From IMG/VR virus record IMGVR_UViG_3300029504_000052: a stretch of DNA of 5,111 bases, one strand, 5' to 3'. The translations under genes were made by a program, and so were the position numbers. Under the pieces are notes generated by a model. That model made no database searches and was not told the origin of the DNA. It was given only the letters and a program-made list of their open reading frames with translations. Position 1 is the first letter of the stretch. Every line of letters begins with the position of its first letter. The stretch comes from a virus. Taxonomy: Duplodnaviria; Heunggongvirae; Uroviricota; Caudoviricetes. This document shows, in pieces, positions 143 to 5,111 of this stretch.

Positions 143-213
143 GTTGGAGTCATTACCCGTTGTTTGTATCCCAGCAATCTGTTGTTTGGTTTTTATTCCA
201 TTAAGGTGGGGGC

Positions 214-241
214 TTTACACTGGAACCAGTTTATTTATACT
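214..241 (+). promoter_or_regulatory. Candidate sigma70 promoter upstream of the 300..899 gene
   Basis: TTTACA at 214-219, a 16-nt spacer, then TATACT at 236-241, about 60 nt upstream of the ATG at 300. Sequence pattern only. Confidence 0.3.
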
Positions 242-299
242 TTATACGTCAGCCTGAACAACTGGCATCTGCTGCACTGCGCCATCGAGAGATTGAGAA

Positions 300-899
300 A
301 TGGCGCATATACAACTGGTCAAACAAACTTCTTCTGGTTTACTTCTCCCGGCGACGCCGGAGAGTTGCGATTTTCTGCATCAAATCAAAATAGGTGAGTG
401 GATACACGCAGACTTTAAGCGTGTGCGTAACTACGCATTCCACAAGCGTTTTTTCAAACTCCTGCAACTGGGATTCGATTACTGGACTCCGGTCGGTGGG
501 GCGATCACGCCTCGCGAACGAGAACTGCTGTCTGGTTTCGTTGATTACCTGTGCGAATCAGTTGGTCGGGAACACACGCCAGCCCTGAGTGATGCCGCAG
601 AGCAATACCTTAACACCGTTGCGACTCGTAGAACCCGGGATACGGCGTTGCTAAAGTCGTTTGAGGCTTTCCGCGAGTGGGTAACCATTCAGGCCGGATT
701 TTACACCGAGCATATTTATCCGGACGGTAGCCGTGGGCGTCGGGCAAAATCCATCGCTTTTGCGAATATGGACGAAGTCGAGTTTCAGCAGGTTTATAAA
801 TCTGTACTGAATGTGCTGTGGAACTGGATTCTGTTCCGTAAATTCTCCTCTCAGGAGGAAGTTGAAAATGTGGCCGCACAACTACTGGAGTTTGCGTAA
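300..899 (+). CDS. Conserved lambdoid nin-region protein, probably DUF1367 family (199 aa)
   Basis: ATG-initiated 199-codon ORF in a gene-dense operon. Its TAA (897-899) overlaps the next ATG (899-901), indicating translational coupling. Position immediately upstream of a YbcO-like gene and Q matches the nin region of lambdoid prophages. The family assignment is from memory and not verified. Confidence 0.8.
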   Translation: MAHIQLVKQTSSGLLLPATPESCDFLHQIKIGEWIHADFKRVRNYAFHKRFFKLLQLGFDYWTPVGGAITPRERELLSGFVDYLCESVGREHTPALSDAAEQYLNTVATRRTRDTALLKSFEAFREWVTIQAGFYTEHIYPDGSRGRRAKSIAFANMDEVEFQQVYKSVLNVLWNWILFRKFSSQEEVENVAAQLLEFA

Positions 900-1189
900 T
901 GGTGAATTTACGTAAAGCGGCTAAAGGCCAGATGTGCCAGATCAGAATCCCTGGCTACTGCAATCACAATCCCGAAACCTCTGTGCTGGCGCATTACAGG
1001 CTGGCGGGGACGTGCGGAACAGCGACAAAACCACACGATATGCAGGCGGCGATAGCCTGTAGCTCATGCCACGATCTAATCGACGGGCGGGTAAAAACCA
1101 GCGATTACACCAAAGAAGAATTGCGCCTGATGCATGCTGAAGGGGTTTTTCGCACACAAGAAATCTGGAGAAAGAAAGGTCATTTATGA
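899..1189 (+). CDS. ybcO: YbcO-like DUF1364 protein (putative small nuclease, 96 aa)
   Basis: 96 aa with four cysteines (CQIRIPGYCN ... CSSCHDL), matching my recollection of DLP12 YbcO in size, Cys pattern and position just upstream of Q. Start overlaps the upstream stop (TAATG) and stop overlaps the Q start (ATGA). Confidence 0.8.
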   Translation: MVNLRKAAKGQMCQIRIPGYCNHNPETSVLAHYRLAGTCGTATKPHDMQAAIACSSCHDLIDGRVKTSDYTKEELRLMHAEGVFRTQEIWRKKGHL

Positions 1190-1728
1190 TTTACCCAACG
1201 AATACAGGAAAAAGCGGAGAACACCTTCGCCTCACCACGCTGGAAAGTGTCTGGATTCAGGGAAAACTACGTATGTGGGGGCGCTGGTCGTATATTGGCG
1301 GTGGCAGGTCAGGGAATATGTTCAATCAGTTGTTGGCATCCAAAAAACTGACGAAAACAGCCATTAATGAAGCCCTGCGCAGAATGAAAAAAGCGGGAAT
1401 AGAGAAAGCTGAGCTGGAAGCGTTTTTGCGAGAGATGATCAACGGCAAGCAAAAGAGCTGGCTGGCGCATTGTACTGATGCAGAGGCGTTATGTATTGAT
1501 CGAGTCATAAGTGAGGTGCTGGCAGAGCATCCAGGATTGATTTGCATTCTCCGGCAACGCTATGAAGGGCGGGGGATGACTAAGCGCAAAATGGCTGAAT
1601 TGCTAAATGATGCACACCCAGAGTGGTGTTTTAGCACATGCGAAAAACGGATTGCTAATTGGTTAGCTGTTGCTGAGTATGCCCTATATATTCCCATGCG
1701 TGAATCATTTGCTGAGAAAATGGCTTGA
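1186..1728 (+). CDS. Late-gene antitermination protein Q family (180 aa)
   Basis: Last gene of the coupled nin cluster, followed within about 80 bp by a strong intrinsic terminator (the classic Q / pR' / tR' arrangement) and then by a lysis cassette. Contains a W-G-x-W segment (LRMWGRWS) reminiscent of Q-family proteins. Which Q subtype (lambda, 21 or 82) cannot be decided by eye. Confidence 0.7.
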   Translation: MIYPTNTGKSGEHLRLTTLESVWIQGKLRMWGRWSYIGGGRSGNMFNQLLASKKLTKTAINEALRRMKKAGIEKAELEAFLREMINGKQKSWLAHCTDAEALCIDRVISEVLAEHPGLICILRQRYEGRGMTKRKMAELLNDAHPEWCFSTCEKRIANWLAVAEYALYIPMRESFAEKMA

Positions 1729-1808
1729 TTTCTTACGTATAAACTGCTTCAATTTTGCTATGCTTCGTAAAGCTGTATCGCGAGGCGGATTGCAGACATG
1801 GACATCGT

Positions 1809-2181: not shown

Positions 2182-2713
2182 GGGCTGGTTTATTGTATGC
2201 CAAATGATTATTAAAAAGGTTGTGTTAATAACAAAATCCGAAATAATATGCCTGCATATTTTTATCTTGCTTATATTCTGCATATTGTGCATAGCAGGCT
2301 CATCCCTGCAATCAAAACTGTATGATGAGTATTTTTTGTTTTCCTTTTTTCCAGTCATCTGATGATGACCTGCTTCTTTTTAATCCGGATCGACATCAGT
2401 TTTTTAAGATAATTCCTGCGAGTTATATGCATAAATACCACAAACTCCGCATTTTATGTGGTTGGGAGTTGCCGGGCGCGCAGTGAGTTTGCTAAGAAAA
2501 CTCCTGCATGGTGAATCCCCCTGTGCGGTGGGGTGATACCATTAACCTTTTCTGTCGCCGACAGGTATCACGAACATTTTGTTCACCGGGAGGCACCCGG
2601 CACCATGCACTTCAATAGATTCTCTCCACATTATGGATATTCTTTCAGAATATCCCACGCAGACTTTGTGTAAATGTTAACAAATGTGCGTTTTATTTGA
2701 TCTGATTCGCTGT

Positions 2714-2743
2714 TTGAGCGTCCAAAACAACGGTATATATAAT
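2714..2743 (+). promoter_or_regulatory. Candidate sigma70 promoter of the TolA-III-like lipoprotein cassette
   Basis: TTGAGC at 2714-2719, an 18-nt spacer, then a perfect TATAAT at 2738-2743 inside TATATATAAT, about 30 nt upstream of the ATG at 2773. A GAGGAA ribosome-binding site sits at 2765-2770. Confidence 0.4.
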
Positions 2744-2772
2744 CCTTTACTATATGACATATGTGAGGAAAA

Positions 2773-3201
2773 ATGGGTTTTCGTAGCGCATCAATTCTTA
2801 CGTTGATTATTAGTGGGATTATTATCGGGTGCACTGATGCTGTATCGACAAATTATCATGACCGTACATCATATTACTCCGATAAAGCAATAGAGACACA
2901 GTATGTGAGTTCATCTGAACGTACTTCTGATGTTAGTGAGGATATCCGTCTGTATGCCCATCAAATCAAGAGCGCCATCGAAAAACAGTTCGGGGATGCG
3001 AGTAAGTATTCAGGAAAAGAGTGTACACTGAGAATGCATATGGCCCCGAATGGCCTTCTACTGGAGGTTAAAAGAGAAAGTGGAGACCTCGATTTATGTC
3101 GTGAAGCGATGAATGCGATAAAGAATGCTGATATACCTGCCCCCCCTTCGCCGGAAGTATATAAAGTATTTCAAAATGGGGTGCTGGATTTTAAACCCTG
3201 A
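2773..3201 (+). CDS. Prophage lipoprotein with a TolA C-terminal (domain III)-like domain, paralog 1 (142 aa)
   Basis: N-terminus MGFRSASILTLIISGIIIGC is a type II signal peptide with lipobox IIGC and Thr at +2, predicting outer-membrane sorting. The C-terminal ~80 residues (YAHQIKSAIEKQFGDASKYSGKECTLRMHMAPNGLLLEVKRESGDLDLCREAMNAIKNADIPAPPSPEVYKVFQNGVLDFKP) closely parallel my recollection of the E. coli TolA C-terminus, including both Cys and the terminal LDFKP. Confidence 0.85.
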   Translation: MGFRSASILTLIISGIIIGCTDAVSTNYHDRTSYYSDKAIETQYVSSSERTSDVSEDIRLYAHQIKSAIEKQFGDASKYSGKECTLRMHMAPNGLLLEVKRESGDLDLCREAMNAIKNADIPAPPSPEVYKVFQNGVLDFKP

Positions 3202-3351
3202 TATTTATTGTTTTGTAATAAACGGTTTCGGCTTAGGTTTGTTCTGACACAGCTACGGCACTGAGCTAAATTTAGCGGATAGTCAGCTCTGAGCCAGTGG
3301 CGGACGTAACAACTACTATTGCTGAGATTTTAATGGATTGAGGAGCAAGAA

Positions 3352-3747
3352 GTGGGATTAAAGAAAATCGTTATGTTGACTTTTTGGGTCGGTTTTGTTG
3401 CGGGATGCACACCTTTACACCCTTCAGATTGCCACAAAACTACTGCTACAGGTAGTTGCAGTTCAGGACGCTGGGATGATCAGGATGAATGGGGGGCGCA
3501 AGCGCGGGGAATCAGAGCTGCAATTAATGCCAAACTTGATGAGCCGCATAACTGGAAAGGGAAAAAATGCAGGTTGCATATGGAATTCTCTCAGGATGGC
3601 ACGGCGTTAAAAATATCTACCAGTAACGGTGATAAAGCCTATTGCGAAGCGATAAAGTCCGCAGCTCATAAAGCCAAATTTCCGGCCTTCAACAATCCGG
3701 AAGTCTACAGAGATTTTCAGAAATCTGGCTTTGACATGCGAGGTTAG
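3352..3747 (+). CDS. Prophage lipoprotein with a diverged TolA-III-like domain, paralog 2 (131 aa)
   Basis: GTG start at 3352 with an AGGAG ribosome-binding site at 3341-3345. Signal peptide MGLKKIVMLTFWVGFVAGC has lipobox VAGC and Thr at +2. The C-terminal domain (GKKCRLHMEFSQDGTALKISTSNGDKAYCEAIKSAAHKAKFPAFNNPEVYRDFQKSGF) keeps the two-Cys spacing and the PEVY..FQ motif of paralog 1, at roughly 30% identity by eye. Confidence 0.8.
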   Translation: MGLKKIVMLTFWVGFVAGCTPLHPSDCHKTTATGSCSSGRWDDQDEWGAQARGIRAAINAKLDEPHNWKGKKCRLHMEFSQDGTALKISTSNGDKAYCEAIKSAAHKAKFPAFNNPEVYRDFQKSGFDMRG

Positions 3748-3872
3748 CTCTTCAATTACTATATCTCATTCATAGCAAACTGACAGATTTGATGATGTTC
3801 TATATACGAAACCTGTGATGTCAAGTCTGAGCTAATACAAATAAACATAATATCAGAGAAATACATTTTATT

Positions 3873-3895
3873 AGCTCGCTACGGCGAGCTTTTTA
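3873..3895 (+). terminator. Candidate rho-independent terminator closing the lipoprotein cassette
   Basis: AGCTCGC - tacg - GCGAGCT followed by TTTTAT: a perfect 7-bp stem and 4-nt loop, about 125 bp after the paralog 2 stop. Confidence 0.5.
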
Positions 3896-3998
3896 TATTG
3901 CATCGTCTCCAGCATATATATCAATTAAGGCTCTGATTGATGTGTCTGAAAGCCTACACATAATAACTATGCCATCCGTTCCGTGCGGAGGTGAGGCT

Positions 3999-4214
3999 AT
4001 GAAATCCATGGACAAAATTTCAACAGGCATTGCCTACGGCACCTCCGCAGGCAGTGCTGGCTACTGGTTTTTACAGTTGCTCGATAGAGTAACTCCGTCA
4101 CAGTGGGCTGCAATCGGTGTGCTGGGTAGTCTGGTATTTGGCCTGCTGACGTACCTGACAAACCTTTATTTCAAGATTAAAGAAGATAAGCGCAAGGCTG
4201 CGAGAGGTGAATAA
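3999..4214 (+). CDS. S: Class II holin (pinholin), phage 21 S21 type, with dual-start motif (71 aa)
   Basis: [71 protein letters not shown] is near-identical to my recollection of S21 / EssD. Met1 and Met4 give the antiholin/holin dual start. GGAGGTGAGG ribosome-binding site at 3987-3996. The stop overlaps the endolysin ATG (TAATG). The ORF-track extension back to 3942 uses a GTG and is not the real start. Confidence 0.9.
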
Positions 4215-4343
4215 TGCCTCCATCATTACGAAAAGTCGTTGCTGCTGCTATTGGTGGCGGAGCAATTGCTATAGCATCAGTGTTAATCACTGGCCCAAGT
4301 GGTAACGATGGTCTGGAAGGTGTCAGCTACATACCATACAAAG
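4214..4343 (+). pseudogene. R: SAR endolysin (R21-type lysozyme), N-terminal fragment cut by IS2
   Basis: [47 protein letters not shown] matches the Gly/Ala-rich SAR domain and N-terminus of the phage 21 endolysin as I recall it. Homology stops abruptly at about 4343, where the IS2 terminal inverted repeat begins. The 105-aa track ORF 4214..4531 is a chimera reading into IS2. Confidence 0.85.
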
Positions 4344-5111
4344 ATATTGTTGGTGGATTTGCCCCTATATTTCCAGACATCTGTTATCACTTAACCCATT
4401 ACAAGCCCGCTGCCGCAGATATTCCCGTGGCGAGCGATAACCCAGCGCACTATGCGGATGCCATTCGTTATAATGCTCGAACGCCTCTGCAAGGTTCTTT
4501 GCTGCCGTTAACCCGTCTGGTTTGGGCATGATACTGATGTAGTCACGCTTTATCGTTTTCACGAAGCTCTCTGCTATTCCGTTACTCTCCGGACTCCGCA
4601 CCGCCGTGTTCTTCGGTTCAAGTCCCAACATCCGGGCGAACTGGCGTGTTTCATTAGCCCGGTAGCATGAACCATTATCCGTCAGCCACTCCACTGGAGA
4701 CGACGGAAGATCGTTGCCGAAGCGGCGTTCCACCGCTCCCAGCATGACGTCCTGTACTGTTTCACTGTTGAAGCCGCCGGTAGTCACCGCCCAGTGCAGT
4801 GCCTCACGATCACAGCAGTCCAGCGCGAACGTGACACGCAGTCTCTCTCCGTTATCACAGCAGAACTCGAACCCGTCAGAGCACCATCGCTGATTGCTTT
4901 CTTTCACGGCCACTCTGCCTGTATGTGCCCGTTTCGATGGCGGTACAGCAGGTTTTCGCTCAAGCAACAGCGCATTCTGGCGCATGATCCGGTAAACACG
5001 TTTGGCATTGATCGCAGGCATACCATCAAGTTCTGCCTGTCTGCGAAGCTGCGCCCATACCCGACGATAACCATACGTGGGCAGCTCTCCGATAACATGG
5101 TGTATACGGAG
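4344..5111 (-). mobile_element. IS2 (IS3 family) insertion sequence, partial; continues past the window end
   Basis: TGGATTTGCCCCTATATTTCCAGACATCTGTTATCACTTAACCC at 4344-4387 matches the reverse complement of the IS2 right terminal inverted repeat as I recall it. It is followed on the minus strand by the IS2 orfB (InsD) transposase. Confidence 0.9.
4365..5111 (-). CDS. insD: IS2 transposase OrfB (InsD), C-terminal ~250 aa; N-terminus lies beyond the window
   Basis: Minus-strand translation ...[52 protein letters not shown]...[19 protein letters not shown]...CLEI is the DDE integrase/transposase of IS2. The frame stays open upstream of the track's Met (5021) to the window edge, so the true start is outside the window. 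Stop at 4365-4367. Confidence 0.9.

Follow-up and report, generated by a model that had tools for sequence, protein, structure and literature searches.

The sequence analysed here, IMG/VR record IMGVR_UViG_3300029504_000052 (5,111 nucleotides; hereafter the window), comes from a decayed lambdoid prophage, of which it covers the late-control and lysis genes. Between its Q-like late antiterminator gene (1186–1728, + strand) and its S21-type class II holin gene (3999–4214, +), a 2.2-kb Q-to-holin (Q-to-S) interval holds two short genes, gene 1 (2773–3201, +) and gene 2 (3352–3747, +). Each codes for a small lipoprotein that ends in the third domain of TolA (TolA-III). An earlier note on this DNA had described a promoter, these two genes and a terminator as one self-contained cassette producing a TolA mimic. 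The two lipoprotein genes are confirmed as complete open reading frames (ORFs) with Shine-Dalgarno sequences and lipobox signal peptides, and the resemblance to TolA-III is strongly supported both by sequence and by predicted fold. The cassette itself is a composite of two independently occurring modules, and window 2476–3987 as a whole is composite accessory cargo ("morons") made up of an STnc100 element, the two lipoprotein genes, which are of unrelated lineage, and a terminator.

Two lipoproteins with a TolA-III domain

Gene 1 encodes a 142-residue protein from an ATG start with GAGG 4 nt upstream. Its signal peptide, MGFRSASILTLIISGIIIG|C, closes with the lipobox IIGC and is followed by a variable, Ser/Thr-rich linker of ~35 residues, modelled with low confidence, and then by the TolA-III domain. 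The domain matches Pfam PF06519 at 2.4e-23 (82.6 bits; cut-off 25) and the TolA chains of the PDB at E = 5e-28 (phmmer). Its last 88 residues align without gaps to residues 334–421 of E. coli TolA, with 52 of the 88 identical (59%) and the same C-terminal end. Gene 1 keeps C363, C388, F352 and the terminal β3 motif L-D-F-K-P of TolA (its β3 strand reads VLDFKP), and retains 11 of the 16 residues of the first helix (334–349), which in TolA contacts g3p and colicin N (ColN). The AlphaFold2 (AF2) model has a predicted local distance difference test score (pLDDT) above 89 over the domain and superposes at 0.6 Å on 2X9A_B, the TolA chain of the If1 g3p complex, with a template-modelling score (TM-score; target-normalised throughout) of 0.96.

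Gene 2 encodes a 131-residue protein from a GTG start with AGGAG 6 nt upstream. Its signal peptide, MGLKKIVMLTFWVGFVAG|C, carries the lipobox VAGC, and a conserved cysteine-containing N-terminal segment separates it from TolA-III. The PF06519 match is 1.3e-14 (54.6 bits; cut-off 25), 27 of 88 residues are identical to TolA-III (31%), and the β3 strand reads GFDMRG. The AF2 model (pLDDT 79.8) superposes on 3QDP at 1.1 Å with a TM-score of 0.92. Residues 19–47 (window 3406–3492) form the mature N-terminus, C-(A/T)-PLHPS-x-CHKTTATGSCSSGRWDDQDEWG, which is almost invariant across genera and which in this family bears two extra cysteines, unlike the linker of gene 1. Instead of serving only as a tether, this segment may have a function of its own and be disulfide-bonded.

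The equivalents of C363 and C388 are invariant in both families, and both models reproduce the alpha-beta-beta-alpha-alpha-beta order of TolA-III. Per-block pLDDT is about 83–97 in both domains and below 50 in the signal peptides and the gene 1 linker. The two domains are 28% identical to each other; together with the 31% identity of gene 2 to TolA-III, this places the genes in separate lineages. A recent tandem duplication was considered and rejected, because the domains share only this 28% and each is nearer to other lineages than to its neighbour.

Neither protein is a full-length TolA. At 142 and 131 residues, encoded in a prophage late region rather than in a tol-pal operon, both lack domain I, the membrane anchor, and the long helical domain II, so neither can couple to the TolQR motor. 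The NCBIfam TolA equivalog models match only the last ~95 positions of each protein, and the PRK09510 scores of 107.8 (gene 1) and 53.7 (gene 2) fall far below the cut-off of 213. In RefSeq, the Prokaryotic Genome Annotation Pipeline (PGAP) lists gene 1 as a tolA pseudogene "missing N-terminus", corresponding to window 2941–3201 (8228–8488 in the related locus L002 and 5360–5620 in L006), and starts gene 2 at an internal ATG, giving 124 residues. Since the gene 1 ORF is complete, its "tolA, incomplete" label is an annotation artefact; the labels and starts given to both genes look like artefacts of applying a full-length TolA model.

Lipoboxes were scored as [LVI][ASTVI][GAS]C followed by any residue except Asp at +2. 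By this measure the lipobox is kept in all full-length gene 1 relatives and in about 109 of 120 gene 2 relatives. The residue that follows the lipobox cysteine decides the outer-membrane sorting of lipoproteins. It is Thr in both proteins (IIG|C-T and VAG|C-T) and A, S or T, never D, across the relatives, and both proteins are accordingly predicted to end up at the outer membrane, on its inner face. The ratio of non-synonymous to synonymous substitution rates (dN/dS), computed for both domains over dS 0.2–1.0, is 0.09–0.30 for gene 1 in pairwise comparisons with diverged relatives and 0.06–0.10 for gene 2 at dS 0.4–1.0. The gene 1 linker evolves faster in the closest comparison (dN/dS 0.79, against a relative in strain M6). 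The low dN/dS values and the conserved lipoboxes indicate that both genes are under purifying selection as lipoproteins. In PHROGs, both proteins belong to phrog_5772, which is unannotated.

Mosaic boundaries and distribution

Local BLAST between the window and related loci defines a mosaic. First, a locus with the same Q and the same holin (L005) matches window 209–1790 and 3988–4358 and carries tRNA-Thr and tRNA-Gly between them. Second, phage mEp460 and strain S586 carry the lipoprotein block after another type of Q: locus L001 (mEp460), with a different Q gene of 822 bp, matches window 2485–4215, and locus L006, with that same Q type, tRNA-Ile, tRNA-Arg and a different endolysin module, matches window 2582–4215. 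From these matches, the travelling unit starts inside STnc100 and takes in the holin. Third, each module also occurs without the other. In strain M6 (L014), gene 1 stands alone 3' of four tRNAs and an STnc100 copy and is followed by another two copies of STnc100 and by a gene for sialate esterase, with homology to the window ending exactly at the gene 1 stop codon (3202). In strain 2013C-3181 (L013), a gene 1 relative of 81% identity stands alone between tRNA-Arg and STnc100. Gene 2 relatives, as described below, are found away from gene 1 on plasmids and chromosomes. Thus, the earlier note correctly saw accessory cargo of the Q-to-S interval, which L005 lacks and replaces with tRNAs. The unit is nevertheless two joined modules rather than one cassette, and the block shared between phages (from about 2485–2582 to 4215) is larger than the note had it, extending from within STnc100 through the holin. 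Direct repeats or target duplications flanking the cassette were sought, and only short, chance-level matches were found, so nothing points to transposition. The entire Q-to-S interval has a GC content of 37–47%, compared with 45–55% in the Q module; as a moron signature, this base composition is only suggestive.

The left junction of the shared block is an STnc100-family small RNA (sRNA) element (RF02076; 2476–2662, +), which scores 86.6 bits (gathering score 47; E = 2.9e-18) and is the lowest-scoring of the STnc100 copies. STnc100 is present at cargo-segment junctions in every lambdoid locus examined, with up to four tandem copies. Examples lie at 4204–4377, 5099–5303 and 5354–5561 in L014, at 4483–4695 in L007, and at 4982–5194 and 6954–7933 (four tandem copies) in L013. 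This arrangement suggests that STnc100 copies may act as homologous linkers for the swapping of cargo, including stx, TolA-III genes and nanS-p. The resulting map of tRNAs, cargo, STnc100, cargo and holin, with STnc100 copies at the junctions, refines the cargo-exchange site in Stx-type phages.

This map also qualifies the proposal that the genes occupy the stx position. They do lie between the Q-like gene with its tR'-like hairpin and the S21-type holin. In H-19B, the order is Q, stx1A, stx1B, STnc100 (79 nt after stx1B), esterase-like ORFs and holin, and STnc100 is likewise reported 75 nt downstream of stx2 (PMC12370729). The STnc100 element of the window is upstream of both lipoprotein genes, whereas that of H-19B is just downstream of stx1B; the window genes therefore lie in the STnc100-to-holin segment, the nanS-p position, rather than in the slot of stx itself. 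Locus L013 differs in this respect. The flanks of its gene 1 relative match the stx-negative phage phi296 (L024), in which only 110 bp, a third tRNA, stand in place of the 730 bp that hold the gene in L013; Phi24B (L023) shares these flanks too and has stx2::cat between them. Judged by these flanks, the L013 gene occupies the exact tRNA-to-STnc100 slot of Phi24B stx2.

Among 5,426 complete E. coli genomes, about 780 carry the 1182-bp cassette interval at 99% identity or more; for the full cassette the count is 775, and for gene 1 it is 898. The interval also occurs in one sequenced phage, mEp460_ev081. The gene 2 family reaches much further, with 368 clusters across Enterobacterales (Citrobacter, Enterobacter, Klebsiella, Raoultella and Serratia). 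Its relatives are carried on 617 plasmids, 264 of them conjugative, where homology at 87% nucleotide identity covers only the ORF and about 30 nt upstream; the homology of plasmid and chromosomal copies begins at window 3315–3322. On a pO157-type plasmid (L003 4995–5426), the gene 2 relative lies between the leading-region genes psiB, psiA and hok and toxB, and on an IncK2/Z plasmid (L004 4995–5426) it directly follows the relaxase gene; many conjugative plasmids of the IncK2/Z type carry such a relative. Plasmid copies thus placed in or next to early-transferred regions would allow early expression in a new recipient. Chromosomal relatives, in Enterobacter, Citrobacter, Klebsiella and Serratia, are solitary, at non-syntenic sites, with no lysis genes nearby. 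In Serratia (L009–L012, genes at ~6957–8736), the gene 2 relative lies about 550 bp upstream of GmrSD-type restriction and HEPN (RiboL-PSP) genes, a neighbourhood resembling a defence island. A profile search of 1.8 billion representatives adds at least 58 further clusters at 50% identity, from Rahnella, Klebsiella, Franconibacter and related genera among others, whose members are 105–170 residues long and combine a lipobox with a C-terminal TolA-III domain.

Surrounding lysis region and transcription signals

The remainder of the window documents the decay of the prophage. Its left side is lost to an IS1 element, whose end (1–157, no strand assigned) opens the window; positions 1–157/162 are 98–99% identical to IS1A, IS1B and IS1SD copies, and homology to the uninterrupted prophage relative L002 begins at 158. 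Pfam matches identify a DUF1367 protein gene (300–899) and a YbcO-type nuclease gene (899–1189), followed by the Q-like gene (DUF1133, 2.5e-107; a weak Phage_antitermQ match, 8.6e-06). The holin gene (Phage_holin_2_1, 2.1e-35), annotated essD in L002, forms the right end of the shared block. It is followed by the first ~48 codons of an rrrD-type endolysin gene (4214–4358, +), which is interrupted by an IS2 element of the IS3 family (4354–5111, −; Pfam rve and rve_3; 99.7% identical to IS2 copies). Homology to L002 stops at 4358, and rrrD goes on in L002. With IS2 in the endolysin gene and IS1 on the left, the element is a lysis-defective remnant. In the L002 prophage, host genes abut hokD, so its early and immunity region is missing. 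Q-driven expression from the early promoters of L002 itself is therefore doubtful, and any function of the cassette there would need a local promoter. A search of the window for tRNA genes found none.

A sigma-70-like promoter match precedes gene 1 at 2714–2743 (+), with a −35 of TTGAGC (2714–2719), an 18-nt spacer and a −10 of TATAAT (2738–2743), agreeing with the consensus at 10 of 12 positions. The match on which the autonomous expression of the unit had been proposed is thus present, but a promoter scan of the whole window yields 12 sites against 8.6 ± 3.1 in shuffled sequences, no enrichment over chance. The hexamers are unchanged only among copies that are 97–100% identical. In the 94% identical relative in L014, the −10 becomes TGTAAT with loss of the critical A at position 2, and in L013 the upstream DNA is unrelated and the promoter match is absent. 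The intergenic spacer between the two modules (3202–3351, +) contains a weak promoter match, CTGACA-17-TAAATT (3244–3272); no terminator is predicted in it, and it folds no better than shuffles (z = −0.83). The terminator that closes the unit is borne out by prediction: between gene 2 and the holin, an intrinsic terminator (3873–3899, +) consists of a hairpin with a 7-bp GC-rich stem and a 4-nt loop (3873–3890), followed by the T run TTTTTATATT, at −13 kcal/mol and z = −4.1 against shuffles. The segment that holds it (3752–3987) occurs in 794 genomes, a set that all but coincides with that of the cassette.

A second predicted intrinsic terminator, a perfect 14-bp inverted repeat (1806–1838, +; −19.7 kcal/mol, z = −6.1) flanked by A and T runs, lies just 3' of the Q-like gene at the position expected for tR'. 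An isrK-like Rfam match (1762–1835; 20 bits, sub-threshold) overlaps it and is consistent with a short pR'-tR' leader transcript comparable to those of Gifsy-1 and to lambda 6S RNA. In lambda, Q-modified polymerase reads through into the late genes. The downstream holin has no other known promoter and the lipoprotein genes are co-oriented with the late operon, so Q read-through would be expected to cross both genes, in agreement with the late transcription that had been proposed for them. The 3' hairpin of the window STnc100 element is AT-rich and lacks the consensus U tract; its transcript could therefore run on into gene 1. Upstream of this element, region 1791–2475 has no match in the phage collection and contains small ORFs without Pfam domains; it is treated as non-coding filler. 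Within it, a promoter-like AAGACA-18-TATAAT sequence (2099–2128) and, ~30 nt later, a terminator-like hairpin with a T run (2156–2175) could form a very short transcription unit (2099–2185) in otherwise AT-rich DNA. A published candidate for expression evidence, EDL933_2012 "TolA", 32-fold induced by ciprofloxacin (PMC11125564), was discarded because the supplement lists it as a tail fibre protein and it is no TolA-III homologue.

Proposed outer-membrane decoys of TolA and competing explanations

TolA-III is a docking site for parasites as well as for host proteins. It binds g3p-N1 of phages Ff and If1, colicins A and N, and the N-terminus of TolB by β-strand addition (PMC7391070, PMC4339652). 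The first helix and β3 form the surface for g3p-N1, colicin N and TolB, and Pro at position 418 or 420 abolishes all three contacts, which differ widely in affinity (about 1 μM for ColN and 40 μM for TolB; PMC4339652). Neither window protein has Pro at the equivalents of 418 or 420. Periplasmic g3p-N1 sequesters TolA and thereby confers resistance to colicin A and a 4-log drop in phage uptake (PMC10424213). Conversely, TolA-III alone, exported to the periplasm, makes E. coli leaky according to the passage of PMC6195910 that cites Levengood-Freyermuth 1993 and Wan & Baneyx 1998.

The favoured reading, plausible although just short of probable, is that the two proteins are outer-membrane-tethered TolA-III decoys that protect the host by intercepting TolA-binding colicins and the g3p of filamentous phages. 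By analogy with these systems, the tethered domains would sit just under the outer membrane. By β-strand addition they would bind TolA-dependent colicins (A, N, K and E1) at the translocation domain and pilus-specific filamentous phages at g3p-N1. Captured ligands would never engage the energised TolA, and the cell would become tolerant. Exported periplasmic TolA-III is reportedly a source of colicin and phage tolerance too, an effect ascribed to the 1993 work of Levengood-Freyermuth. Because the TolA–TolB contact (~40 μM) is far weaker than the parasite contacts (~1 μM), a modest level of decoy could protect at little cost to Tol-Pal; high levels, as expected from Q read-through at induction, would bring some outer-membrane leakiness as a side effect. 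Outer-membrane location, ligand binding, a protective phenotype and expression in the lysogen are what we infer for these proteins, beyond the gene structure, domain identity and fold, lipoboxes, mosaic distribution and purifying selection described above.

Several observations weigh against protection by decoys. The helix and β3 strand of gene 2 have diverged from TolA, and the protein may thus bind something other than the known partners of TolA. The gene 1 lineage is found only in E. coli and Shigella prophage late regions (Q-to-S intervals), which is equally compatible with a role in lytic growth, and the about 780 near-identical copies of the cassette may largely reflect clonal descent rather than selection. 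The lysogen promoter is a consensus match only, unproven and not conserved. A decoy could also titrate TolB and so harm the envelope. PADLOC gave no match at E ≤ 0.1 and has no fitting model, and a full-text literature search found no functional study of stand-alone TolA-III lipoproteins.

The earlier note suggested a different use of the same domain, in which a TolA mimic made late helps lysis or release by weakening the outer membrane. In detail, free TolA-III produced mainly from the Q-antiterminated transcript would titrate TolB from TolA, destabilise the outer membrane and so speed or complete what holin, endolysin and spanin do in lysis and in the release of virions. Both genes share the orientation of the late operon and lie immediately 5' of the holin, where late read-through is expected; gene 1 relatives were found only in prophage Q-to-S intervals; and over-produced periplasmic TolA-III makes cells leaky (cited in PMC6195910). 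The distribution nevertheless favours protection of the cell over assistance to lysis, since the gene 2 family lives mainly on conjugative and virulence plasmids and on chromosomes without lysis genes and is under strong purifying selection there. Lambdoid lysis already includes an outer-membrane step (a spanin gene is present in L002), L005 lacks both genes with the same Q and holin, and the weak TolA–TolB affinity means that a very high protein level would be needed. Moreover, the cassette remains intact although IS2 has broken the endolysin gene and the early region of the prophage is missing. A lysis aid is thus a poor fit and appears unlikely.

Similarly improbable is a role as a host envelope modulator, in which a low-level decoy would tune Tol-Pal through TolB or CpoB and alter vesiculation, export of toxins or sRNA, or stress tolerance, rather than act primarily against colicins or phages. 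TolA-III serves TolB and CpoB as an interaction hub (PMC7391070), gene 2 is conserved as a solitary chromosomal gene in several genera, its diverged TolA-like binding face suggests a different partner, and the adjacent sRNA STnc100 has been detected in outer-membrane vesicles (PMC12370729). Against this, loss of tolA or pal raises sensitivity to bile salts (PMC12505904), so strong constitutive inhibition of Tol-Pal would be costly in the gut, a cost that a modest level of decoy would avoid owing to the gap in affinity, and modulation leaves carriage by conjugative plasmids and prophages in particular unexplained.

Protection could also be confined to the lytic cycle. The SOS response induces prophages and colicins alike, and depolarisation triggers holins; late decoys might shield an induced cell from the pore-forming colicins released by SOS-induced neighbours, which would otherwise collapse the membrane potential and set off the holin prematurely. 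The expected co-transcription with the holin and the confinement of gene 1 to prophage late regions agree with such timing, but the proposal is purely speculative, leaves gene 2 on plasmids and chromosomes unaccounted for, and shares its mechanism with the decoy reading from which timing alone separates it; it is very unlikely. That the genes are functionless, decaying remnants of captured tolA 3' ends, as the PGAP label "incomplete; missing N-terminus" on gene 1 implies, is scarcely credible for two complete ORFs with Shine-Dalgarno sequences, signal peptides, conserved lipoboxes, confidently folded AF2 models and dN/dS well below 1 over substantial synonymous divergence.

The decoy reading may extend beyond the window. 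Conjugative plasmids make their hosts pilus-bearing and hence expose them to filamentous phages, which need TolA. More tentatively, both genes, the relatives on ~600 conjugative and virulence plasmids and the dozens of further Enterobacterales clusters could form a widespread and so far unrecognised class of envelope defence by co-receptor mimicry, which would trap Tol-dependent colicins and the g3p of pilus-specific filamentous phages in the periplasm. Plasmids would thereby offset the phage susceptibility linked to their pili, and two versions in a single prophage would broaden the range. If such tolerance is real, it would change the reading of colicin-sensitivity and phage-host-range data in natural isolates, affect the design of colicin- or phage-based antimicrobials, and bear on the question of how conjugative plasmids keep down the price of displaying a phage receptor. 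If late sabotage of Tol-Pal is true instead, the genes would represent a new accessory step in lambdoid lysis. The moron architecture of lambdoid late regions, with cargo between Q and S that Q-modified polymerase transcribes up to a terminator, and the TolA domain are both known; the full-text search found neither a free TolA-III lipoprotein on a mobile element nor mimicry of the periplasmic co-receptor TolA by one.

The window proteins can be compared with four known systems. With host TolA-III (TolA ~334–421; PDB 1TOL, 2X9A, 3QDP/3QDR and 1S62), they share family, fold, cysteines and a β3 strand with which the chain stops at the same position; most of the residues that contact g3p, ColN and TolB are kept in gene 1. 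Unlike the window proteins, host TolA has a domain I, whose SHLS motif couples to TolQR, and a helical domain II; it is anchored in the inner membrane, whereas the anchor of the window proteins is predicted to lie in the outer membrane, and it is encoded in the tol-pal operon rather than on prophages and plasmids. With the lambdoid Q-to-S morons (stx1/stx2, the nanS-p esterase and nmpC in DLP12), the genes share compartment, orientation, presence/absence variation and bracketing by tRNAs and STnc100, but their product is an envelope lipoprotein, whereas those morons encode toxins, an esterase and a porin.

Lipoproteins of phages and plasmids that mask a receptor are well known, among them Cor (phi80/N15), Llp (T5) and TraT (F). 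These are likewise small outer-membrane lipoproteins of phages or plasmids, without sequence relationship to the window proteins, and the likeness in blocking entry depends on the role proposed here. Cor, Llp and TraT mask an outer-membrane receptor (FhuA, OmpA), whereas the window proteins would mimic a periplasmic co-receptor. The closest mechanistic parallels would be exclusion by g3p and recombinant periplasmic TolA-III, in which the contact between TolA-III and its ligand is competitively titrated in the same compartment. However, g3p titrates the receptor, whereas the window proteins would titrate the invader, and recombinant TolA-III is soluble and over-produced, whereas the window proteins are natural and predicted to be lipid-anchored.

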